Positions 6,640-19,894 of a DNA stretch of 64,000 nucleotides are shown one piece after another. The position numbers and the translations under genes were made by a program. The DNA comes from Eubacteriales bacterium. GTDB lineage: Bacteria > Bacillota > Clostridia > Oscillospirales > CAG-272. Position 1 is the stretch's first letter; every line of letters begins with the position of its first letter. The stretch is taken from positions 644-64,643 of the forward strand of contig JBGVRH010000051.1 of the NCBI GenBank assembly GCA_045128275.1. The letters are read 5' to 3'. Under the pieces are notes generated by a model. That model was given only the letters and a program-made list of their open reading frames with translations. It had not been told where the DNA came from and searched no databases.

Positions 6640-9600
6640 TCATTCACCGTACACGGCAAGCTCATAGATGCTGAACCAATCCTCGCCGTCGCGGATCAAG
6701 CGGATGTAGCGAGCCTCCACATTCAGGTTATCCAGCGCCACGGTCAGCTCGTCCTTTCGACATTCGCGGAGAGTCTCGTAATGCTCTCCGTCGGTGGAAT
6801 ACTCAATGCGGTAGGGCACCCACGCCGCCTCCAGGAAGGCCTCCAGGCTCTTGACCTTGCAGACCTTGCCGAGATCCACCTGCAGCCAGGCCTCCCCCGT
6901 AGGCAGAGAGCCCCAGCGGGTGGTCATATCCCCGTCCACGGCGTTTTCCTTTACGTAAGACCCCTCCTGGGTGGTGGCGGTGACGGGCTTATCCTTGGCA
7001 ATGTTGACCCGCTCGACCTCCTCCTTGCCCGAGGCGATATCCTCGTCGGTGGCCTCATAGGCGCGGAACTCAAAGATGGAGACGTAGTTGCCCCGCGGGA
7101 TCTCCAGGCGGATGAATCGGGTCTTGGCACCGTGGAGGTTGATATCCGTCATCATAGAGCCGTCATCGGTGTAGACCTTATAGGCGGTGAAGGTCTTGCC
7201 GTCCTCCGAGAGGGACAGGGTGAAGGGGGCGTGGATGGACTCCCACAGGATATCCACCTCGCCGATGGCGTAGACCTGACCCAGATCCACCTGCCAGGAG
7301 TGCTTACCCGTAGACAGACCCATGCCGCTCCAGCGGGTGATGGCCGAACCGTCCACAGCGCGATCGGGAGAAAGTGTACCGTTCTCACTGTAGTTGGAGG
7401 AGGCGGGCTTGTTCAGCGCCAGATTCTCCCGCTTCTGGGAGGGATCGGGCACCTTGTAGGTGGCCTTTTGGATGTAGTTGAACTTGGTATCGGGGACACA
7501 CCGATTCTCCACGTCCTGTACCACGGCGATCTCACCCACAGATACGGTGGCCTTGGCCTTGAGATCCGCGGAGGAGGCACCCACCGAGACAGTGTAGTCA
7601 CCCTTGTCTAAAATCCAGCGGCTCTCGGCGGTGTCGTAGGTCATGAGGGACTCCACCGAGGCGCGGATGTACACCCGTTGGGACTCCCCGGGGGCAAGCA
7701 TGTCGGTCTTGGCGAATCCGCACAGCTCCAGCGCCGCCTGCTCCTGAAGGGTCTCGGGCTTGGTGACGTAGAGCTGGATGATCTCCCGTCCCGCCACCGA
7801 GCCGGTGTTGGTCACGGTGACCCAAGCGGAGACAGTCCCGTCGGGGTTCTGCTTGACCGCGAGATCGCTGTATTCATAGCTCGTATAGGACAGACCGAAG
7901 CCGAAGGGGTAGGCCACGCCCACGCCGAAGGTGGTGAAGTAGCGGTAGCCCACGTAGATGTCCTCGTAGTAGGTCACGTCGATGGCACTGCCGGGGAAGT
8001 AGTCGGCGGCGGGGGTGGAATCGTAGCTCACAGGCCAGGTCATGGCGGTCTTGGCGGAGGGATTGACCGCCCCCGTCAGCACGGAGGCCAGGGCGGTACC
8101 GCTTCCCTGCCCCGCGTAGCCCAGGTACAGAATGGCATCCACCTTGTCCCGCCAGGAGACCACCTCCATGGGAGAGCCCATGTTGAGAACCACGATGACC
8201 TTCTTGCCCTTGGCATGGAAGGCCGCCGAGACGCGGTTGATCATGTCGGCCTCGGTGTCGTTGAGCAGGAAGTCGCCCTTGAGGTTGGAGCGATCCTGTC
8301 CCTCGGTGGAGCCGCGGGAGATGACGATGACCGCCGCGTCGGCGCCGTCGGCCATTTCCTTGGCGTAGGCATCGGTCACCACGATGTCCTTGGAGGGATC
8401 CATGGCATCGTGGGCCGCACAGTTCTCAAAGGGATTGTTCTTGGCGTTGACAACCGTCAGACCGTCGGCCCTGCGAAGGCCGTCCATGATATTCACGGTG
8501 GTGTTGGGACTCACACCGCCCGAACCAGCACCGCCGAACACCGTCTGATACGCGCCGTTGCCGAAGACGGCCACCGAGGCATCCTTGGCCAGGGGCAGGG
8601 CGGCATCGGTGTTCTGCAGAAGGATGATGGTATCCGCGGCGGCCTCGGTCGCCACCTTGTTATGCTCCTTGGTGTTGACACGGGTGTTCATCTTCAGCCC
8701 CTTATGGGTGGGAGACTCGGCCACCACGGTGAGGATATGGTAGCAGCAGGCATCCAGGGCGGCATCGGTGATCTTGCCCGCCTTGTAGGCCGCCAGCACG
8801 TCGGCGGGGTCGGTCTCATTACCGGGCATATTCACGTCGTTGCCCGCATTGACCTTATCGGTCATAGAGCCCGCCGCGCCCCAGTCGGACATGACGAAGC
8901 CCTCAAAGCCGAACTCGCCCCGCAGAATATCGGTGAGAAGCTCCCTCTTGACCGAGGTATGCTCCCCGTTGAGGCAGTTGTAGGAGGACATGACGGTGAG
9001 GGGGTCGGCATCGGCCACCACCATACCGAAGGCCTTGAGGTAGATCTCCCGCAGGGCGCGCTCGGTGACGTTGGCGGAGGTAGAGCCGCGGGCGGTCTCC
9101 TGGTTGTTGGCGGCGTAGTGCTTGAGGCAAGCCCCCGCGCCCGTGGATTGCATACCCCGGACGTAGGCGGTGGACATGATCCCCGTGAGGATGGGATCCT
9201 CGGAGCAGTATTCAAAGTTACGCCCGCACAGAACGTTCTTCTGGATGTTCATACCCGGGCCCAGGACGATGTCGATGCCCAGAGCCAGGGAGTCCTCACC
9301 GATGGCCTGTCCCACCTTGGAGATGAGGGCAGGATCCCAGGAGGCGGTGAGATTATGCACCGAGGGATACCACACCGAGGTGCTGTAGCGCACCCCCGCA
9401 GGGCCGTCGTTGACGGTGATGGAGGGGACACCCAGGCGGTCGATGGGGTAGGTACCGCCCGAAGCCCCCGCCTTCACGGGATTCTTCACGCCCGTGACCA
9501 TGTGGGCCTTCTCCTCGGCGGTCATGGCGGCCACCACACAGCGGACACCGTCCGGGGTCAGCTGGGGCAGACCGTTCTTCATCATCAGGGTCATCTCGTC

Positions 9601-10086
9601 CAGCATCTCGCCGTCGGGAGACGTGACACTACCCACGATGGAAAGCTCCCCGTTCAGACGATCGGCGGGGCACTCCAGCACAGCGGTATGCTCTCCGTCG
9701 GCGGCGAAGGATACGTCGGAGATGATCCCGTCCTTGTCGGACAGGGTGAGTTTCACAGTACCCGACAGTCCCTCCTCCTTGGCCTCGGCGGCCATGGTCA
9801 GGGTGATCTTGCCGTCACCCGCCGTCAGGGTATGGGCGATGAGGTCAATCTGATCCCCCAAAGCGGGGATGGCGGGCTGAGTTTCAGGCTCGGTGTCGGC
9901 AGACCCGGTCTCGGCGGGGTCGGCAGTCTCCACCGTCCCGTCTCCCTCGGTGTCTGCGGGATCGGCAGACGTATCGGTGACCGCCGTATCGGAGGCGGTC
10001 TCATCGGGAAGATCATTTCCGCGACAGGACGAAGTAAAAAGCAGGACGGCGATCAGGACCGTCAAAAGCGGCAGGATCTTTTTCAT
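6640..10086 (-). CDS. Lipoprotein GH3 beta-glycosidase with Fn3-like and two F5/8 type C (CBM32) domains
   Basis: Lipobox FTSSC; DGPAGVR, GRNFEYCSEDP, KHYAANNQE, VMSDWGA, YPFGFGLSYT; two NLAL/NIAK..AVDG..TRW..WxQVDLG repeats. Confidence 0.92.
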   Translation of the reverse strand: MKKILPLLTVLIAVLLFTSSCRGNDLPDETASDTAVTDTSADPADTEGDGTVETADPAETGSADTEPETQPAIPALGDQIDLIAHTLTAGDGKITLTMAAEAKEEGLSGTVKLTLSDKDGIISDVSFAADGEHTAVLECPADRLNGELSIVGSVTSPDGEMLDEMTLMMKNGLPQLTPDGVRCVVAAMTAEEKAHMVTGVKNPVKAGASGGTYPIDRLGVPSITVNDGPAGVRYSTSVWYPSVHNLTASWDPALISKVGQAIGEDSLALGIDIVLGPGMNIQKNVLCGRNFEYCSEDPILTGIMSTAYVRGMQSTGAGACLKHYAANNQETARGSTSANVTERALREIYLKAFGMVVADADPLTVMSSYNCLNGEHTSVKRELLTDILRGEFGFEGFVMSDWGAAGSMTDKVNAGNDVNMPGNETDPADVLAAYKAGKITDAALDACCYHILTVVAESPTHKGLKMNTRVNTKEHNKVATEAAADTIILLQNTDAALPLAKDASVAVFGNGAYQTVFGGAGSGGVSPNTTVNIMDGLRRADGLTVVNAKNNPFENCAAHDAMDPSKDIVVTDAYAKEMADGADAAVIVISRGSTEGQDRSNLKGDFLLNDTEADMINRVSAAFHAKGKKVIVVLNMGSPMEVVSWRDKVDAILYLGYAGQGSGTALASVLTGAVNPSAKTAMTWPVSYDSTPAADYFPGSAIDVTYYEDIYVGYRYFTTFGVGVAYPFGFGLSYTSYEYSDLAVKQNPDGTVSAWVTVTNTGSVAGREIIQLYVTKPETLQEQAALELCGFAKTDMLAPGESQRVYIRASVESLMTYDTAESRWILDKGDYTVSVGASSADLKAKATVSVGEIAVVQDVENRCVPDTKFNYIQKATYKVPDPSQKRENLALNKPASSNYSENGTLSPDRAVDGSAITRWSGMGLSTGKHSWQVDLGQVYAIGEVDILWESIHAPFTLSLSEDGKTFTAYKVYTDDGSMMTDINLHGAKTRFIRLEIPRGNYVSIFEFRAYEATDEDIASGKEEVERVNIAKDKPVTATTQEGSYVKENAVDGDMTTRWGSLPTGEAWLQVDLGKVCKVKSLEAFLEAAWVPYRIEYSTDGEHYETLRECRKDELTVALDNLNVEARYIRLIRDGEDWFSIYELAVYGE

Positions 10087-10164: not shown

Positions 10165-11688
10165 TCACTGGTTTCTCTTACGGTTGACCATCTGAAGCTC
10201 GCCCACCATGGCATCGGTGATCTCCTCGATACCCGACTTACCCGCGTAACGGGCCTTGTCATACACGGCGAACAGTGCCTTCTCGTCGTCCTCCAGAGCG
10301 ATCTCTGCGCCAATCTCGGCGGGGGTCATGCTCCGCTTCATGAAGTAGCCCTTCTTGATGCGACGGATCATGTAATCGATGAAGATGAAGCGCACGCGGG
10401 CGGCATTGTCGGTCTGCTCCACCCACTTGAGGTCATTCTTGAGCTTTTTCTTGGCCTTCTTGACCTTCTCGGTGTCATCAAACACGAAGGTCTTCTCATC
10501 CCGTCCGCCCAGGCGGTTGCGGCGGGAGAGGTCGATACCGATGGAGAGCAGGAGCTTGTTGACCGCCTTGATCACGGGCGCGACCAGCCTCTTGGCGAAC
10601 TTGACGGCGGCCTGACCCAGCTTCTTGCGCATACTGGCGGTGAGCATCCGCAGGAATGCCCGACAGCCCATGACGATGAAGAAGATGGCCAGAAGCACCG
10701 TGACGGCGCGGATGGTGTTGGAATTGGCGATGAAGAAGTCGGTCTGGATGTTGGGGACCACGATGGAGGCATAGAGGTCTCCGATGAGCAGCAGCAGCCA
10801 GATGATGAACTCTGCCATGCGCCGCTTGTCGATGTTGCGCCAGACCTCCACAAGGGAGTTGTGGGTCTCGTCATCGATCATCCTGCGCTTGCGGGGCATG
10901 ACCGTCCCGCTATCAGCGGGACCCTCGTCGCCCTCGGCGGAGGCATCCTTGGCGGTCTTGGCATCCTTGCGGGTGACCCGCACCACCTCGTCGCCACCCT
11001 TGGGAGCGGTTGTCTCGGCGGGCTTTTCCTTCTTCTTCTTTTCCTTGGGTCTGACCTTATTGGCCAGCTTACGGCAGGCAACGGCCTGCTGGGCGGCATC
11101 CGAGTAGACCGCGATCTTCTCGAATTTCTCGGCGGCCTCCTCGAACTCCGAGAACACGTGGCCGTGCTCCATGAGGTGGAGGGCCTCGTTGTACATACGG
11201 TCGAAGTAGTATTTTTCAAACCGCTCGATGAGCTCGCGGGTGTTCTTGAAGCCCTTGATGGACTTGAGCAGCTCCACGCCCTCGCCCAGCTCCTCGGTGG
11301 TGGCCTCGGCGTTGGAGAGCAGGGTCATGGCCTCCTCGTAGACCAGGGCGTTGGCCTTGACGGTGTAGACGCGCATGACCTCGCGGGCATCCTGGTAGTC
11401 CTGGATGATCTGCATGATGCGGGCGGCCTCGCGGTAGTCGGCGGCGGTATTCTCGGCACCTCTGGTGCGGATCTCGTCGGTGATATCGCGGTAGGCGGGG
11501 GCGGAGGCGGCCTTGACGCACTGGCTGTACTTCTGAGCGGAGTCCTTGTAGGTATCCAGGGCGCGGAACTCCTCGGCCAGAGCCAGGTAGTCCCGCCAGT
11601 TCGACACGGAGGCGAACTTATAGGTGGCGGCGGTATAGCGGGCGTTCAGCTCGCTCTCGGAGAGATTGGTCTTCTTCTCATTGGCCAT
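10165..11688 (-). CDS. Membrane protein with N-terminal helical repeats and DUF4129-like C-terminus
   Basis: Four repeats (YKDS/YQDA/FKNT/YSDA), two TMs, C-terminal MTPAEI..YDKARYA. Confidence 0.7.
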   Translation of the reverse strand: MANEKKTNLSESELNARYTAATYKFASVSNWRDYLALAEEFRALDTYKDSAQKYSQCVKAASAPAYRDITDEIRTRGAENTAADYREAARIMQIIQDYQDAREVMRVYTVKANALVYEEAMTLLSNAEATTEELGEGVELLKSIKGFKNTRELIERFEKYYFDRMYNEALHLMEHGHVFSEFEEAAEKFEKIAVYSDAAQQAVACRKLANKVRPKEKKKKEKPAETTAPKGGDEVVRVTRKDAKTAKDASAEGDEGPADSGTVMPRKRRMIDDETHNSLVEVWRNIDKRRMAEFIIWLLLLIGDLYASIVVPNIQTDFFIANSNTIRAVTVLLAIFFIVMGCRAFLRMLTASMRKKLGQAAVKFAKRLVAPVIKAVNKLLLSIGIDLSRRNRLGGRDEKTFVFDDTEKVKKAKKKLKNDLKWVEQTDNAARVRFIFIDYMIRRIKKGYFMKRSMTPAEIGAEIALEDDEKALFAVYDKARYAGKSGIEEITDAMVGELQMVNRKRNQ

Positions 11689-12880
11689 CCTCGTCACCTC
11701 CCTCCAGGATCACGGTCTGGACAGAGTTACCGAACTGCTCCAGAGTGGAAATGCGATCCAGCACCTCCTCGTTGTGGTCGAAGGCGATGATGATGACCTC
11801 GGTGTCCCGCATGCCTCCGCGGATATCGTTCTCCAAGAGAGAGGCAAAGGACGCGCCGTCGGTGGGATTCATGCGGGCCATCTCCTTCATGATGGCGATG
11901 AGGTGAGCGTCCGAGCTCTCGCAGGGGAAGCGGGAGGACATCTCACCGTCGATGGCCTTACAGTTGGCGGCAAAGCCCACCGAAAAGCCTCCGTAGATGG
12001 CATCGCGGATGAGGGCGGCGCAGAAGGACAGACCGTTCTCGGCGCGGCGGTTGTACTCGCGACCGTCGATCTTACTGCCCATGGGCAGGTGGAAGTCCAT
12101 GTAGATCATGAGCTTACGGGAGGCGCAGTAGTCTCTCGCGTTGACCTTCAGAGGAGAGCCGGAGGAGCCCGTCATGGGCACCTTGGCCGAGGCCTTGAAG
12201 TTGATCTGGGAGACCGAATCGCCGAAGCGGTAGTCACGGATGCCCGCCAGGGAGAAGGGATCCATGAACAGGGGTCTCTGGGAGACGAAATCACCCTGCA
12301 TGCGGCCTACGGCAATGGCGGGGAGTCCCAGGGGGACGGCCTTGGGGTAGACGTACAGCTCGGTGGGAGCCTCCATGGGGATGGGGCCCTTCTTGGCGTA
12401 GATGGTGGCGATCTGAAGCTTGTAATGGCCGCGCTTCTTGGCGGTGATGCGGTGGTGGCGCTTGATCTGCATGTAGGGCCAGAGGTTGAAGCGGGAGATG
12501 CAATACTGCATGGTACTGCTCCCATCGTTCTCGTATTCCTCCAGCTCCAGCTCGTTGAAGAAGTAGGACTCCACGTCCACGCCGAGCAGGGGGAAGAAGC
12601 CGGGGTTACGGATGGTCTCGATCAGCTCCACCTCCTCACCCTCGTAAACGCCCTCCTCCGAGAAGTGGCGCTCGTAGATGATGCGTCCCAGTCTGGCGGC
12701 GCGCATGGAGCCGTAGATCTTGAGCAGGATCCACAGCACGATCAGCACCGCGACCACGACGATCAAGGCGGTGAAGTAGGGGGATGTGATGAAGTTGAGG
12801 ATACCGTTGATGATGCCCTCCGCCGCCGTACCGACCACCGATCCGCCCGAAAGAAGGGCTGCGATTGGCAGGAATGTCAT
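11678..12880 (-). CDS. DUF58 domain protein
   Basis: GIRDYRFGDSVSQINFKASAK motif; follows MoxR. Confidence 0.88.
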   Translation of the reverse strand: MTFLPIAALLSGGSVVGTAAEGIINGILNFITSPYFTALIVVVAVLIVLWILLKIYGSMRAARLGRIIYERHFSEEGVYEGEEVELIETIRNPGFFPLLGVDVESYFFNELELEEYENDGSSTMQYCISRFNLWPYMQIKRHHRITAKKRGHYKLQIATIYAKKGPIPMEAPTELYVYPKAVPLGLPAIAVGRMQGDFVSQRPLFMDPFSLAGIRDYRFGDSVSQINFKASAKVPMTGSSGSPLKVNARDYCASRKLMIYMDFHLPMGSKIDGREYNRRAENGLSFCAALIRDAIYGGFSVGFAANCKAIDGEMSSRFPCESSDAHLIAIMKEMARMNPTDGASFASLLENDIRGGMRDTEVIIIAFDHNEEVLDRISTLEQFGNSVQTVILEGGDEDGQ

Positions 12881-12883
12881 GGC

Positions 12884-13855
12884 TTATCTCTCCTCGAACA
12901 CAGCCTCGGTGGGAACCGTGACCATACCCAGAATGTCGTCGATGATCTCGTAGGCGGCATTCTTCTTGATACGGGCGGCGTTCTCCAGGGTCAGACGGTG
13001 ATCCAGGACGGGGTGAGCGGCGCGCTTGACGTCGTCGGGGGTGACGTAGTTGCGGCCTGCGATGGCGGCATAGCCCTTGGCGGCCTTCATGAGGGACAGG
13101 GCACCACGGGGAGATACGCCCAGCAGCACCTTGGGATAGGAGCGGGTCTTCTCCACGATGGAGGTGATGTAGCCCATCATCTCGCGGCAGATGTAGACCT
13201 TGGGCAGCTCCTGGATGGCGGTCACCAGCTCCTCGGCGGTGACCACGGGCTTCAGGGTCTCCAGGGGGGAGAACTTATCGAAGCGGGCCAGGATATCCAC
13301 GCCCTCGGAGTGGTTGGGGTAGTCCATTCTGCCCTTCATGAGGAAGCGGTCCAGCTGTGCCTCGGGCAGGGGGAACGTACCCATGGACTCCACGGGGTTC
13401 TGGGTAGCGATGACCATGAAGGGCTGGGCCAGCTTGAAGGTCTTGCCGTCGATGGTGGCCTGAATCTCCTCCATACACTCCAGAAGACCCGACTGGGTCT
13501 TGGGGGTGGCGCGGTTGATCTCGTCGGCCAGGACGATGTTGGCGAAGATGGGGCCGGGGACGAACTCGAACTCCGACTTCTTCATGTTGAAGAAGTTGAC
13601 GCCCGTGATATCCGAGGGGAGCAGGTCGGGGGTGAACTGGATACGCTTATATTCGCAGGACACCGAGGCGGCCAGAGACTTGATCAGCACCGTCTTACCC
13701 GTACCGGGGACGTCCTCCAGCAGGACGTGACCGCCGCAGAGCAGGGAGACGATGAGCATATCGATGGTATCGGACTTACCGACGATGACCTTACCGATAT
13801 TATCCTTGATCTTTTCGTAGACCTCGGTGATGTGGGCGGAGATCTGGGTGGACAT
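12884..13855 (-). CDS. MoxR family AAA+ ATPase
   Basis: LLEDVPGTGKT, RIQFTPDLLPSD, LADEINRATPKTQS, ATQNP, LPEAQLDRF. Confidence 0.96.
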   Translation of the reverse strand: MSTQISAHITEVYEKIKDNIGKVIVGKSDTIDMLIVSLLCGGHVLLEDVPGTGKTVLIKSLAASVSCEYKRIQFTPDLLPSDITGVNFFNMKKSEFEFVPGPIFANIVLADEINRATPKTQSGLLECMEEIQATIDGKTFKLAQPFMVIATQNPVESMGTFPLPEAQLDRFLMKGRMDYPNHSEGVDILARFDKFSPLETLKPVVTAEELVTAIQELPKVYICREMMGYITSIVEKTRSYPKVLLGVSPRGALSLMKAAKGYAAIAGRNYVTPDDVKRAAHPVLDHRLTLENAARIKKNAAYEIIDDILGMVTVPTEAVFEER

Positions 13856-13999
13856 GATGGGTTACCTCTTTTCTTCTAAGTTCGCATCTCTCGGAGAGAT
13901 ACAGATATACCCTTTTATTTTACTATTTTTCAAGGCTTTTGTCAATACAGTTGAGTCCTTTTCTACATTTTCAACAGTTTCATAAAGGCTTTTTTGGAC

Positions 14000-14040: not shown

Positions 14041-14703
14041 TTATACCTTTTTGGTCGGGATCTTGTAGGCGAACACGTCAAAGCCCGTCACCCCCATGGT
14101 CGTCAGCTCGGCCACCGAGGCCTCCACGTCGGAGTCGGTGTTGAAGCCGGGGATATGGGGCACGCGGACGGTAATCCGATCGGCTCCCACAAGGGACAGA
14201 AGCAGGGCGAGGTTGGACTTCACAAGGGTGTTGTCGCGCCCCGTGTAGGCTTTGTAAATGGCGGGGTTCATGTCCTTGATATCGATGAAGAAATGATCCA
14301 CCACCCGTGCGGCGGCGCGGACGTTGTCCTCGGGGATGTTCAGGCAGGACTCGGCGTAGATGCGCCAGTCGGGGTGGCAGACCTGGCGGAAGGCGGTGAT
14401 GAAGTCGGTGTGGAGCAGAGGCTCCCCGCCGCCGAAGGTCACACCGCCCCCCGTGGCCAGGTAGTAGAGGCTGTCGATCTTGACCCTCTCAAACAGCTCG
14501 GCCGCCGTGACCCGCTCGAAGGGGGGCTTCCCGTCCTTTCGCTCATGCCAGGTCTGGGGGTTGATGCAGAGCTTACACTGCAAGGGGCACCCGAAGGCCC
14601 CCACGAGAGCCGTCACCCCCGCGCCGTCGGTGGCCATGCGGAGGCGGTCGCAGAAGGCCAGGGGAAAGGTGGGCAGAGCTTGATCCATCATAGCGTCCAT
14701 CAC
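14041..14703 (-). CDS. Radical SAM protein, glycyl-radical (PFL) activase-like
   Basis: DGAG..GCPLQCKLCINP (CxxxCxxC), GGVTFGGGEPLL, IDIK, RVPHIPGFN. Confidence 0.9.
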   Translation of the reverse strand: MMDAMMDQALPTFPLAFCDRLRMATDGAGVTALVGAFGCPLQCKLCINPQTWHERKDGKPPFERVTAAELFERVKIDSLYYLATGGGVTFGGGEPLLHTDFITAFRQVCHPDWRIYAESCLNIPEDNVRAAARVVDHFFIDIKDMNPAIYKAYTGRDNTLVKSNLALLLSLVGADRITVRVPHIPGFNTDSDVEASVAELTTMGVTGFDVFAYKIPTKKV

Positions 14704-15269
14704 TCCACAGGCTCGCCCATCAGCTCGTCCTCGAAATTCTCCTCGACGGTATCCGTCTCGGTAGCCGTCTCGGTAGCCTCCTCGGTGATCTCCTCGGTAA
14801 TCTCCTCGATGACCTCGCCCTCCCAGACCACGTCGCCCATCAAAGGCTCCTCGGTCTCTTCCACGGGCACACCCGCAAGAGGCAGATCGCAGGCCGTCTC
14901 GGTCTCGGGCGGGGGTATCATCTCTCCGTCTACAGCGATATAGGTCTCCTCGGCAGAGGTATCGGGGAAGGGCATATCTCCCGCGACGGGCTCACCCGCC
15001 TCGGTGGAGGGGAAGGGATTCACGCACCCCGTCACCGATAGGGCGATGGAGGCGGAGATGCCCACCACGGCCACGGTCTTGCCCAGGGCCTCCCGCTTGG
15101 CCAGGGCGTTCTCCAGCTGGCGCACCTCCTGCTCGCACTTGGGGCAGGTACCCTTGCAGTTGCCCTTATGCTTGCACTCGGACACCACCCACTCAATATC
15201 GTTCTCGCGGGCGATCTCGGCGCGGATCTGTTTAAGGATGCGGCATTTTTCTTTTCCGTAATATTTCAT
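14700..15269 (-). CDS. Hypothetical protein: Cys-rich N-terminal domain, TM/lipobox, acidic Gly-motif repeats
   Basis: KCRILKQIR..ECKHKGNCKGTCPKCE; LSVTGC; repeats VAGDM/VDGEM/LAGVP/LMGDV/LMGEP; RBS GAAAGGAG. Confidence 0.85.
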   Translation of the reverse strand: MKYYGKEKCRILKQIRAEIARENDIEWVVSECKHKGNCKGTCPKCEQEVRQLENALAKREALGKTVAVVGISASIALSVTGCVNPFPSTEAGEPVAGDMPFPDTSAEETYIAVDGEMIPPPETETACDLPLAGVPVEETEEPLMGDVVWEGEVIEEITEEITEEATETATETDTVEENFEDELMGEPVE

Positions 15270-15356
15270 GGGAATTGCTCCTTTCGTTATGGAAGAGTTT
15301 CAGATGGGTCACGCGTAATACGTACCGGATGGGTCAAAGCGGCGTTTATGCGGATT

Positions 15357-15986
15357 TTATCTTTTCTGATCCACGCTGACCGGTCGATCCTTCTGGTCCA
15401 CCTCTTTCAAAGCACGCTCGCTGAACCAGATCACGTTGCCGTTTGAAGCATAATAGACCGTCACCTCGGCGGTATATCCCTCGTACAGATCTTCTTTGAT
15501 GTACAAAGTAACGTCGATCTGTCCGCGGCACTCCCCCGTGGGGAGGGTGATCTCAATGTCCTCAAAATAATTCGGTGTCTTGGTGGGATAGCTCCAGTAG
15601 TGTTCTTCGACCGTCGCACGGAAATCCGTGTTTGTAAAATAGTCGTGATATTCCTTCTCAAAGAGATCCGCAACACCGTTGATGAGGCACCCCTCGGCAT
15701 CAATTTCCAAAACCGCTGTCTGGTTCTCATGGGCCGAGATCTTCATATCCCCGCCCAGGCCAATCGTCACCGTGACGGTATTCGAATCGGTGACCTGCAC
15801 GGACTGGTGGGGAATGGTGATATCCACCACGTTGCTCTTCTCTCCCGAGCCGCCGGCGCGGGAGGAGCGGAGGTAGAGAGGATCTGTGCCCTGTTGGCAA
15901 GAGACGCACAGAAGGGTGACGGTCAGAAGCATCAGCACGATCAAGACCCTTCTTTTTGGAGAAAACATTCGGTGTGTCATATTCAT
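15357..15986 (-). CDS. Hypothetical lipoprotein
   Basis: Signal peptide with LCVSC lipobox; RBS GAAAGGAG. Confidence 0.7.
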   Translation of the reverse strand: MNMTHRMFSPKRRVLIVLMLLTVTLLCVSCQQGTDPLYLRSSRAGGSGEKSNVVDITIPHQSVQVTDSNTVTVTIGLGGDMKISAHENQTAVLEIDAEGCLINGVADLFEKEYHDYFTNTDFRATVEEHYWSYPTKTPNYFEDIEITLPTGECRGQIDVTLYIKEDLYEGYTAEVTVYYASNGNVIWFSERALKEVDQKDRPVSVDQKR

Positions 15987-16070: not shown

Positions 16071-17330
16071 TTACAGCCGTGTCACCACCCCCACGAACAG
16101 GGGCAGTCCCGTCTTGGTATCCACGATGGCGTACACGAAGGGACGGTCGAGGTAGACGTATTTCGGCTCCATGGGGGCAGCAGACTCGGCCTTGTTGACC
16201 GCCCAGGTCACGGCGGCGGCCTTGGTGCCGTTGCGGTCTACCTGAATGAAGGTCTTCTGGAAGACGCCGTCGCAGTAGAGGTTGCCCATGGCAGAGGTAC
16301 CCAGCCCCGAGAGGTCGGCGGTGTCACTGCTAAAGAGATGAGTCACGCCCATCTCCTTTAGGGAAGCGGTGAGATTCATGTCGCTGGCATAGGTGAACTC
16401 GGGGATGCGGGTGTAGACCGTCTCGCGGGTCTGCTCCTGCCACATGGCCGTCCAGTCCCCGCCGTCCAGGGAGGCGGCGAACTCATAAATGTCGGTTCCC
16501 TCCTCGGGCAGAAGACCCACGAAGCAGTAGGCGCTTCCCTTGTAGGGCTTGGCTACCCCGAAGCCCCCCTCCACGGTGAGGTAGCGGGACTCCTCGGAGC
16601 GGAGCATGGCCACGGGGGACTCGGTGCCGTTCAGGGAGGTGAAGGTGTCGGTGAGAATATCCTTCTTCTCGTACTCCTCCTCCCACTTGGCATCGAAGAC
16701 CAGGGCGTTGACCACGTACATCACCGCCTCGGCGGGGATGGGATCCTCCAGGATGGAGTCGATCATGCCGTCGGTGTAGTGATCCACCCACTTGTTGATA
16801 TCCTTGCGGGTGGTCTCGTCAAAGGGGGCGGCGTACTGCTGGGCCTCGTACCAGTCGGCGCAGGTCTGGAGGAACTCCTCGCGGACAGAAAAGCTGTCCC
16901 CGTCCCGATACCAGATGGAATCCGCCACCGAGACCTTGCAGTCCTTGCCTGTGTACAGTCCGCTGGTGTAGGCGTAGAGTGCCTTGTTCAGCTCGTCAAT
17001 GGGCATCCCCAGCACCGCCTCCATCTGGGCGAGGGTCTCCCCCTCGGCACCGTTGGCCAGCATGGAGAGACAGATCAAAGCGGAGAGGGGAGACACCAGG
17101 TGGTTGGCCTTGCCCTCCTTCTCCAAAGACACGGTGGTATTGGTCAGCGCCAGGGAGAAATCCGCCATGGCGGTCTTGAACTGGTCGGTGACCTTCCCTG
17201 CCTCGGTCACTTCGCGGGTATAGCCCGCCGACAGCTCGGAGGCCTTGACGTTGAGCGCGCAGGAGGTCATCTGCGCGGGGATGGCGGCCAGCATGAGCAC
17301 CGCCAGCAGAACATTCAATAGCTTTTTCAT
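16071..17330 (-). CDS. Serpin family lipoprotein
   Basis: NHLVSPLSA, INKWVDHYTDGMI, NALVFDAKW, hinge GTKAAAVT, LDRPFVYAI..PLFVG; RBS AGGAGG. Confidence 0.93.
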   Translation of the reverse strand: MKKLLNVLLAVLMLAAIPAQMTSCALNVKASELSAGYTREVTEAGKVTDQFKTAMADFSLALTNTTVSLEKEGKANHLVSPLSALICLSMLANGAEGETLAQMEAVLGMPIDELNKALYAYTSGLYTGKDCKVSVADSIWYRDGDSFSVREEFLQTCADWYEAQQYAAPFDETTRKDINKWVDHYTDGMIDSILEDPIPAEAVMYVVNALVFDAKWEEEYEKKDILTDTFTSLNGTESPVAMLRSEESRYLTVEGGFGVAKPYKGSAYCFVGLLPEEGTDIYEFAASLDGGDWTAMWQEQTRETVYTRIPEFTYASDMNLTASLKEMGVTHLFSSDTADLSGLGTSAMGNLYCDGVFQKTFIQVDRNGTKAAAVTWAVNKAESAAPMEPKYVYLDRPFVYAIVDTKTGLPLFVGVVTRL

Positions 17331-17375
17331 GGGATACCTCCTATGGGGTGGGCCTTTTGAAATGCCCTTCACCCA

Positions 17376-17405
17376 TATAGACGACATTTTTTGAGATCCA
17401 TTACC
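17376..17405 (-). promoter_or_regulatory. Putative ECF-sigma promoter of serpin
   Basis: GGTAAT..AAAAATGTCGTCTATA; matches the motif upstream of the ECF sigma gene (41487-41517). Confidence 0.5.
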
Positions 17406-17478
17406 CCCAAAGCCCAACGTTTACAAAATATTCACAAAAACCCACGCGCAAAATGAACTTGCGGCGTGGGTTCGGAGA

Positions 17479-17958
17479 TCAGTTTTCGGGGTCTTGGGTC
17501 TTTTTGGTCTTGGCGTGCTTCTTCTTGAGCTTCTTCAGCTCGTCCATGAAGGAGTCCACGTCGGTGAACTGGTGGTAGACCGAGGCGAAGCGGACGTAGG
17601 AGATCTCGTCGATAGCGCGGAGCTTCTCCAGCACCATGTCACCCAGCTCCACAGAGGGCACCTCCAGGCGCAGGGTGTTCTGCAGCTCGGACTCGATCTC
17701 GTCCACAATGGCGTCAGCGTCCACGGTGCGCTTGCGGGTGGATTTCAGAATGCCGTTGATGAGCTTGTTGCGGTCAAAGGGCTCCTTGGAGCCGTCCTTC
17801 TTCAGCACCATGATCTGGGCTTGCTCGATCATCTCGAAGGTGGTGAAGCGCTTGGCGCATTGGAGGCATTCGCGGCGGCGGCGGATGCTGTTGCCCTCTT
17901 CAATGGGGCGGGAGTCGATGACCTTCAGGTCGGGATTGCCGCAGGCGGGGCATTTCAT
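17479..17958 (-). CDS. nrdR: Transcriptional repressor NrdR
   Basis: MKCPAC..VIDSR..IRRRREC..KRFTTFE, ATP cone, YVRFASVY. Confidence 0.97.
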   Translation of the reverse strand: MKCPACGNPDLKVIDSRPIEEGNSIRRRRECLQCAKRFTTFEMIEQAQIMVLKKDGSKEPFDRNKLINGILKSTRKRTVDADAIVDEIESELQNTLRLEVPSVELGDMVLEKLRAIDEISYVRFASVYHQFTDVDSFMDELKKLKKKHAKTKKTQDPEN

Positions 17959-19364: not shown

Positions 19365-19589
19365 GTGTATATGGAAGTATATCAACGAATGAAGGATCTC
19401 CGCGAGGATCACGATCTGAGCCAGGAGGATATCGCCAAGGTACTACAGACCACCCAGGAGCAGGTCAGCAAATACGAGACGGGACGGCAGATGATGGGCA
19501 TTGATAAATACATCAAGCTGGCAAAGCATTACAATGTGAGCCTGGATTATCTGACGGGCCTGATCGACACGCCGAGGAAACTATTCTAA
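19365..19589 (+). CDS. XRE family HTH regulator (copy 1)
   Basis: RMKDLREDHDLSQEDIAKVL..VSKYETG..LAKHYNVSLDYLTG. Confidence 0.9.
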   Translation: MYMEVYQRMKDLREDHDLSQEDIAKVLQTTQEQVSKYETGRQMMGIDKYIKLAKHYNVSLDYLTGLIDTPRKLF

Positions 19590-19669: not shown

Positions 19670-19894
19670 ATGTATATGACGCCGAATGAACGCCTGAGAG
19701 AAATGCGTATCCGACACGGCCTGCGGCAAGCCGAAGTAGCGGAATTATTGAATACGACTCAAAGACAGATCAGCAAGTACGAAAGAGGTCTGCAAGTCAT
19801 GGGAACGGATAAATATATAATTCTTGCGAAACACTACAACGTCAGCCTCGACTATCTGACGGGTCTGATCGACACGCCGAGAAAGCTGCATTAA
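19670..19894 (+). CDS. XRE family HTH regulator (copy 2)
   Basis: RLREMR..QAEVAELL..ISKYERG..LAKHYNVSLDYLTG. Confidence 0.9.
   Translation: MYMTPNERLREMRIRHGLRQAEVAELLNTTQRQISKYERGLQVMGTDKYIILAKHYNVSLDYLTGLIDTPRKLH

Follow-up and report, generated by a model that had tools for sequence, protein, structure and literature searches.

On the reverse strand of a 64,000-nucleotide stretch of contig JBGVRH010000051.1 from a Eubacteriales bacterium (assembly GCA_045128275.1; the whole stretch is called the window), a short radical S-adenosylmethionine (SAM) enzyme (rSAM) is encoded next to a small Cys-rich protein with a putative lipoprotein signal and an acidic tail. The enzyme resembles the activase of pyruvate formate-lyase (PFL). 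The two genes are linked across many clostridial genomes, and the pair points to an undescribed protein-modification system. A full-text literature search, with subscription journals mostly outside its coverage, found no description of such a pair. The features of the pair are as follows.

14041-14703, reverse strand: rSAM gene, short and PFL-activase-like; 220 residues when read from GTG 14703
14700-15269, reverse strand: small-protein gene, 189 residues
14688-14703, reverse strand: gene junction; the small-gene TGA (14702-14700) is overlapped or closely trailed by the rSAM start candidates
15278-15284, reverse strand: Shine-Dalgarno-like AAAGGAG, 8 nt 5' of the small-gene ATG, read from the sequence
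15090-15269, reverse strand: five-Cys domain, residues 1-60 (Cys9, 32, 38, 42 and 45; C-x5-C-x3-C-x2-C); proposed rSAM docking module
15024-15089, reverse strand: lipoprotein-type signal segment, residues 61-82 (basic residue, hydrophobic stretch 65-81, lipobox VTGC with Cys82)
14703-15023, reverse strand: acidic hypervariable tail, residues 83-189, with seven Gly-centred motifs
14994-14996, 14979-14981, 14925-14927, 14871-14873, 14835-14837, 14817-14819 and 14715-14717, reverse strand: tail Gly codons

An earlier note, made from the letters of the window alone, had described the small protein as five Cys, a hydrophobic stretch running to VTGC and an acidic tail, and the translation of its open reading frame (ORF) agrees. 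The tail holds exactly seven Gly, at positions 92, 97, 115, 133, 145, 151 and 185, all of them in the contexts listed in that note (EAGEP, VAGDM, VDGEM, LAGVP, LMGDV, WEGEV and LMGEP). The overlap it reported between the rSAM start and the stop of the 189-residue ORF is likewise confirmed by the ORF coordinates and the position of the TGA. Four start codons are candidates, namely GTG 14703 (4-nt overlap), ATG 14700 (1-nt overlap), ATG 14691 and ATG 14688. Because most homologues are 216 residues long, the enzyme is probably a protein of 216 residues starting at ATG 14691. The arrangement of the junction suggests that the rSAM is translationally coupled to the small gene.

No sigma-70-like site was found in a promoter scan 5' of the small gene, terminator-like matches occur only inside the rSAM gene and at chance level, and an Rfam scan of the whole window gave no matches. 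A promoter-like site (11/12) at 13945-13917 on the reverse strand, between the rSAM and a MoxR gene, fits the MoxR gene and suggests that the operon downstream of the rSAM is separate. RNA-library contigs from four metatranscriptome runs in three studies lie on both genes and across their junction, which is weak support since DNA carry-over is possible. Records of 166 nt span the junction (14631-14796) in two of the runs, and there is no cover at 13901-13967. A 3324-nt contig from these libraries matches 14056-14792 and 15009-15700, and its tail has 195 different letters in place of 216.

Linkage and modular organization of the pair

A species-level search, with one genome per species, identified at least 583 stretches, from which the best 80 loci were kept. 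The rSAM gene is adjacent in 74 of the 80, always on the same strand; it follows the small gene in 73 of these and precedes it in one (L113). Each of the six remaining loci reaches a contig end 68-452 nt past the small gene. Among 301 genomes from the bacterium's own order, the small protein occurs in nine, this one included, and in none of 17 others of its own family. The rSAM is adjacent in eight of the ten loci from these genomes, and both exceptions belong to one genome (G271). In a sample of 400 genomes from the class, the Cys domain occurs in 11, again including this one, and the rSAM is adjacent in 10/10 non-own loci, one copy (L029) being broken. The reverse search of the class with the rSAM as query returned, at E <= 1e-33, nine non-own genomes, all of which are among the ten with the Cys domain; in the tenth (G379) the rSAM is broken. 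It also returned a fragment in G423, located where a contig begins, and four weaker matches at 36-40% identity. The earlier note had proposed scoring co-occurrence of a Cys-domain profile with this rSAM, and on that score the genes are linked across genomes, reciprocally so in the class sample. Record titles name Oscillospiraceae, Lachnospiraceae, Ruminococcus, Eubacteriales and similar metagenome-assembled genomes, many of them from the guts of ruminants and other animals.

The two genes also lie close together. Across 62 loci, the median distance from the small-gene stop to a conserved R-x-R motif, roughly 10-20 codons into the rSAM, is 39 nt, and in 61 of these loci it does not exceed 120 nt. 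With a median this short, the small gene and the rSAM abut or overlap across loci. Two small genes stand in tandem before a single rSAM in 6/79 loci. Tandem precursor genes served by one enzyme are frequent in systems for ribosomally made, post-translationally modified peptides (RiPPs). No conserved third gene was found, as none of the six window neighbours recurs within 1.5 kb in nine other order-level loci. An enzyme gene is conserved next to a substrate-like gene, as in rSAM RiPP and protein-maturase systems.

A profile of the N-terminal 80 residues of the small protein matches 2864 clusters (50% identity) at E <= 0.001 and 2329 at E <= 1e-10. The spacing CX5CX3CX2C is present in 149/150 of the best cluster representatives, and the five Cys together with two Gly (Gly36 and Gly40) are invariant in alignment A1. 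A strict lipobox pattern fits 127/149 representatives. In the window protein, VTGC (Cys82) fits the pattern [LVI][ASTVI][GAS]C; a short basic N-region is absent from its N-terminus, where the 60-residue Cys domain precedes the signal. The hydrophobic stretch and Cys probably form a lipoprotein-type (signal peptidase II) signal, which would make the tail extracellular. The membrane-anchored protein of the earlier note keeps its anchor with one amendment: the anchoring element is a lipobox signal, and any modification has to be made before export. In Pfam, NCBIfam, PADLOC and PHROGs, neither the small protein nor its Cys domain has a match. The ESM Atlas yields only unnamed clusters, and comparison with the PDB gives a best E of 0.14 in a profile search and of 1.8 with Foldseek and the domain model. 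A zinc-binding anti-sigma factor (zf-HC2, HxxxCxxC with an adjacent sigma gene) was considered and rejected; there is no Pfam match at E <= 0.01, and the neighbours encode a lipoprotein, a serpin and a MoxR ATPase.

Conservation is distributed unevenly along the small protein. Compared with its 120 nearest relatives, the window protein is most conserved in the signal segment (97.9% identity), followed by the Cys domain (95.4%), and is far more variable in the tail (57.9%). Conserved islands in the tail are the Gly motifs (PLMGDV, EGE, MGxP) and the region just past the lipobox Cys. Expressed as hydrophobic-x-G-[DE]-hydrophobic, or [LIVMFWAT]-x-G-[DE]-[LIVMFAP], the motif accounts for 516 of the 2165 Gly (23.8%) in 226 different tails. 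For comparison, the motif takes in 2.9% of the Gly in this genome's 1992 long ORFs and 2.5% of those in the acidic stretches of these ORFs, placing the tail rate 8- to 9-fold above the proteome. At least one motif is present in 128/149 representative tails and at least two in 99/149, with a total of 312 versus 44 in shuffled tails. Among the 20 residues, it is around Gly and Met that the sequence of the 226 tails is most constrained, the Met signal being due mainly to Met preceding Gly. The Gly motifs singled out in the earlier note are, by this enrichment and as islands in a hypervariable tail, conserved across the family. Many family tails also contain small globular domains. The overall layout, a conserved part that may serve recognition and a variable part with conserved motifs, resembles that of RiPP and maturase systems.

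The tail-coding region 14792-15009 differs between near-identical strains, which fits the low tail identity among relatives and suggests rapid diversification of a segment predicted to be surface-exposed. A sortase or C-terminal sorting signal was considered for the terminal LMGEP-type motif and dropped, as neither a hydrophobic segment nor a basic tail follows it.

Sequence and structure models describe three modules: a short PFL-activase-derived rSAM, a putative helical-hairpin domain of ~55 residues with five Cys, and a predicted lipoprotein signal with an acidic tail. In the window, the Cys domain and the signal and tail form one protein and the rSAM is the next gene. In a fused form, for which eight protein clusters were found, the Cys domain instead sits at the rSAM C-terminus, giving proteins of 305-315 residues in loci L032, L033 and L037. 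In all three of these loci, the next gene downstream is that of a small lipoprotein, whose N-terminal signal peptide is of the ordinary kind and ends in LLTGC and whose short tail has the same kind of motif (e.g., LMGDV, VMGIM, LMGIP). The lipoproteins of this split architecture do carry the short basic N-region. The three modules stay together though the break between genes moves. In a third form, the Cys domain ends a larger protein encoded upstream of the rSAM:

L030 1447-2490, reverse strand: Cys-domain-ended protein; N-terminal ~280 residues of no known family
L031 1447-2448, reverse strand: the same type of protein

Because the fused and third forms exist, the Cys domain is a portable module that accompanies the enzyme. 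Proteins of the L030/L031 type are a possible second kind of client. A tubulin/FtsZ likeness of the L030-type N-terminal domain appeared among weak Atlas leads (0.83) and was treated as noise. In genome G501 (L034), an 82-residue stand-alone TSCPD-domain gene at 8222-8470 on the forward strand faces the fused gene and its lipoprotein, with AddAB and shikimate-pathway genes on the flanks.

The activase-like enzyme and its predicted docking partner

The only Pfam matches of the rSAM at E <= 0.01 are PF04055 (Radical_SAM) and PF13353 (Fer4_12). Among NCBIfam models, the glycyl-radical activase subfamily TIGR02494 fits best, at 127.2 bits against a cut-off of 174.35. TIGR02493 gives 77.7 against 231.75, and the enzyme falls below the curated cut-off of all 17 matched models. 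The ferredoxin-insert region of TIGR02494 (model positions ~42-101) is skipped in the match. The nearest solved protein is the E. coli PFL activating enzyme (PFL-AE), at E 9.5e-12. The CX3CX2C motif (Cys39/43/46), GGGEP and DIKD align to E. coli PFL-AE, and all three are invariant in alignment A2. A DGxGxR substrate loop is a defining feature of the activases of glycyl-radical enzymes (GREs). In the window-type enzymes, the Arg position of this loop is Thr or Val in all 18 rows of A2, whereas fused relatives keep DGPGVR. Sources label the homologues either 'radical SAM protein' or 'pyruvate formate lyase activating enzyme', and the latter label is misleading.

Comparison with PFL-AE (E. coli PflA; PDB 3C8F, 3CB8 and 8FO0) brings out both the kinship and the distance. 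The two share core size, the absence of a ferredoxin insert, CX3CX2C, a DG-x-G loop, GGGE and D-x-K. The window enzyme differs in having no cognate GRE here, in scoring under the cut-offs, in reading DGAGVT for DGxGxR and in ending at the HPY-equivalent position, which makes it ~30 residues shorter. PFL-AE, in turn, lacks the five-Cys domain to which the window-type rSAM is obligately linked and sometimes fused. In a quick tree, the fused forms and this genome's canonical activases fall on one side of a long branch (SH-aLRT 99) and the unfused, pair-linked enzymes on the other; the root is arbitrary, and the long branches formed by 12 small-protein ORFs and by one or more further stray ORFs were ignored. 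The insert-bearing activases of TIGR02494, the nearest NCBIfam model, also provide an extra Cys-rich, possibly cluster-binding module serving an rSAM core, as described in a 2026 GRE review (PMC13450708). Here the insert is missing, and the extra module is a different five-Cys domain, either C-terminal or on a separate protein. The review's passages on activase domains describe only insert-bearing and insert-less activases of GREs (PMC13450708).

Structure predictions place the Cys domain directly on the enzyme. AlphaFold2 models the domain as a helix, a Cys-rich loop and a second helix (mean pLDDT 70). Residues 5-62 of the small protein were co-folded with the window rSAM in the presence of two 4Fe-4S clusters and SAM. 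The co-fold reaches an ipSAE of 0.62 (runs 0.58, 0.62 and 0.62) versus 0.01 for the best of three controls, with 100% contact agreement between runs and a partner pLDDT of at least 83. A mark of 0.62 is reached by 116/157 solved complexes and 2/215 mismatched pairs, which is a rough guide here, where own alignments and ligands were used. On the Cys-domain side, the predicted interface comprises both helices and the G-T that precedes the run's third Cys (GTCPKC); on the rSAM side, it comprises the R-L-R-M strand (20-23) and residues 76-84. Several of its positions are invariant, in both proteins. A model of the fused protein has a pLDDT of 79.9, and its core superposes on 3C8F with a TM score of 0.86 over the target. 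Co-folding of the pair, which the earlier note had called for, thus supports binding. That note had also offered the Cys domain as a docking or metal-binding leader. Docking is favoured by the natural fusions and the co-fold; a classical leader is not, as the domain is detachable from the tail. These models and the domain arrangements support a Cys domain that docks on the enzyme as a portable module rather than as a classical leader.

Proposed mechanism and competing explanations

An enzyme-substrate system is the most economical reading of the pair. We give an even chance to a scheme in which the Cys domain is the docking site of the enzyme, which modifies the tail of the pre-lipoprotein before export; the tail as substrate, metal binding, export, lipidation and the chemistry are all things we infer. 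In the cytoplasm, the Cys domain, probably with bound metal or an Fe-S cluster, would tether the enzyme to the newly made pre-lipoprotein. The enzyme would cleave SAM, and the resulting 5'-deoxyadenosyl radical would take a hydrogen at or beside the Gly of the tail motifs, which are the most likely site of action. Sec export of the tail would follow, with lipidation at Cys82 and a cut by signal peptidase II that separates it from the Cys domain, which would stay behind. A more specific and more tentative version, possible rather than probable, is that an activase-derived enzyme has been repurposed to form C-alpha radicals on Gly of disordered, repeated pre-lipoprotein motifs, giving a new backbone modification before export. 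The Cys-rich, possibly Fe-S, domain would either ride on the substrate or be fused to the enzyme, and outcomes might include oxidation to alpha-hydroxyglycine and cleavage into amidated fragments, or a cross-link.

A simpler assignment is that the rSAM is an ordinary spare activase for PFL, NrdD or another GRE encoded elsewhere, with an unrelated neighbour. Its best family and structure matches are indeed GRE activases, and all eight other pair-bearing genomes tested have at least one GRE, so that none among them lacks one. The window itself contains no GRE, as the earlier note had observed, and the four glycyl-radical domains (PF01228) of this genome lie on other contigs (C74, C94, C95 and C34; the window contig is C51). 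These four GREs are matched by four canonical activases, three of them adjacent to their GREs once C74 and C56 are joined. The activases on C94 and C34 adjoin their GREs, and the 5' end of C56 overlaps the end of C74, placing the C56 activase after the C74 GRE. The GRE on C95 (9053-11329, reverse strand) has no adjacent activase, which speaks for a spare; an insert-bearing activase on C35 (21170-22204, reverse strand) is likewise unlinked, and these two presumably work together. In five further genomes (G143, G290, G245, G238 and G271; G232, G249 and G275 were left out of this count), 7/7 glycyl-radical matches have an activase-like match within ~1 kb, and the rSAM of the pair is an additional, much stronger match elsewhere in the genome. 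As each GRE already has its own activase, the rSAM is surplus to every GRE checked, and the 'orphan' status given to it in the earlier note holds in this genome and in five others. Together with scores under every curated activase cut-off, a near-obligate linkage to the Cys-domain gene that extends to fusions, and a clade set apart from this genome's canonical activases by a long, supported branch of the quick tree, this balance makes the spare activase very improbable.

The main rival to the proposed modification of the tail, unlikely in our estimate and well ahead of the spare activase, treats the Cys domain as an auxiliary subunit, for Fe-S binding or electron transfer, that takes the place of the ferredoxin-like insert of other activases. 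The real substrate would be a small molecule or an unlinked protein, and the signal and tail would only anchor, localise or regulate the enzyme and stay unmodified. That the domain can occur joined to the enzyme and apart from the tail, that it rides on a different protein in L030 and L031, that its five invariant Cys include a CX3CX2C spacing, and that the predicted interface is a stable side-on contact all suit such a subunit. Most GRE activases have an auxiliary ferredoxin-like domain, according to the review (PMC13450708). This explanation accounts for the fusions and leaves the lasting linkage of a fully exported lipoprotein without a Cys domain unexplained: the split-form lipoprotein, which has a cleavable signal peptide, would have no physical link to the enzyme after export, yet it is kept downstream in 3/3 loci. 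The Gly motifs are also the only conserved features of the tail, tandem small-gene copies stand beside one enzyme, and no third conserved gene lies within 1.5 kb in the nine other order-level loci to supply a substrate. It is also conceivable, with a probability clearly lower again and still above that of the spare activase, that the Cys domain is itself the substrate, receiving a thioether-type cross-link or a radical at Gly36 or Gly40 in its Cys-rich loop. The domain contacts the enzyme in the co-fold, including through the G-T of GTCPKC, its two Gly and five Cys are invariant, and it alone of the modules recurs in each of the three architectures. If the substrate were fused to its own enzyme, however, only a single turnover would be possible, the contact residues lie outside the expected active-site opening, and the continued linkage of the tail and its motifs when split from the domain is left unexplained.

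Several observations weigh against modification of the tail by the docked enzyme. With the enzyme in the cytoplasm and export predicted for the tail, the reaction has to come first. The predicted interface lies beside the barrel and not in the active site, and no Gly motif is placed there. The substrate loop of PFL-AE, DGxGxR, corresponds to TDGAGVT in the window enzyme, and Pfam at E <= 0.01 identifies neither a SPASM/twitch domain nor a RiPP precursor recognition element (RRE) in it. SPASM/twitch domains are present in most peptide-modifying rSAM enzymes, and SPASM/twitch or an RRE is typical, though not universal, of maturases. The pattern finds no motif in 21/149 representative tails, some of which are apparently frameshifted. 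In G271, neither of two small genes has an adjacent rSAM; the rSAM of this genome contains a TGA in frame and is 4 kb away from one of the two. The Cys domain of L030 and L031 ends a protein of 333-347 residues that has no lipobox or acidic tail, and no lipoprotein gene lies nearby, so the tail is not universal. Finally, the Cys domain of the fused form is detached from the tail, which a classical leader would not be.

Related systems, neighbouring genes and implications

The closest organizational parallels are rSAM RiPP maturases, such as SCIFF with its maturase and the sactipeptide synthases. They share an enzyme gene beside a substrate-like gene, sometimes in tandem copies, and a conserved N-terminal recognition part followed by a hypervariable C-terminal part with short motifs. 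Unlike these, the present enzyme has no SPASM, twitch or RRE, and the recognition part is predicted to be folded, Cys-rich and fusible to the enzyme. The 'core' would here be the mature part of a Sec/signal peptidase II lipoprotein of 60-380 residues rather than a short peptide. No more than an analogy is offered by anaerobic sulfatase-maturing enzymes and by QhpD with its target QhpC, in that a cytoplasmic rSAM acts on a short linear motif before export. Those enzymes are SPASM-type, with two auxiliary clusters and known targets (Cys/Ser, or Cys-Asp/Glu), whereas the scaffold here is activase-like.

The genes that surround the pair in the window are of diverse kinds:

6640-10086, reverse strand: GH3 glycosidase of 1148 residues with Fn3-like and two F5/8 type C domains and a lipoprotein-like N-terminus
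10165-13855, reverse strand: apparent operon of a MoxR-type AAA ATPase (AAA_3 and AAA_lid_2), a 400-residue protein with a weak DUF58 match and a 510-residue membrane protein of no known family
15357-15986, reverse strand: predicted lipoprotein of 209 residues and no known family, directly upstream of the pair; absent beside the pair elsewhere
16071-17417, reverse strand: bacterial serpin of 448 residues (PF00079, E 2.1e-77), here in a genome of the gut Clostridia, with a lipobox-like MTSC closing the hydrophobic segment at its N-terminus; not kept near the pair elsewhere
17479-17958, reverse strand: NrdR (TIGR00244, E 3.5e-54), 2.2 kb from the pair, with no conserved relation to it
19365-19589 and 19670-19894, forward strand: two tandem XRE-type helix-turn-helix genes of 74 residues each, with near-identical C-terminal halves

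The pair is small and self-contained. With the Cys domain present in at least 583 species-level genomes and 2864 protein clusters, mostly from uncultured Oscillospiraceae, Lachnospiraceae and other Clostridia of animal guts, the system is a common, unannotated feature of gut and rumen Clostridia. A tail that serves as substrate would give the activase scaffold a second use outside GREs, with the enzyme recruited in a new way, by a docking domain that its substrate carries, and cell-surface proteins of the gut microbiota might then bear a new modification. Should the more tentative proposal of radicals on the repeated Gly hold, a class of rSAM-modified surface lipoproteins would be widespread in gut and rumen Clostridia.

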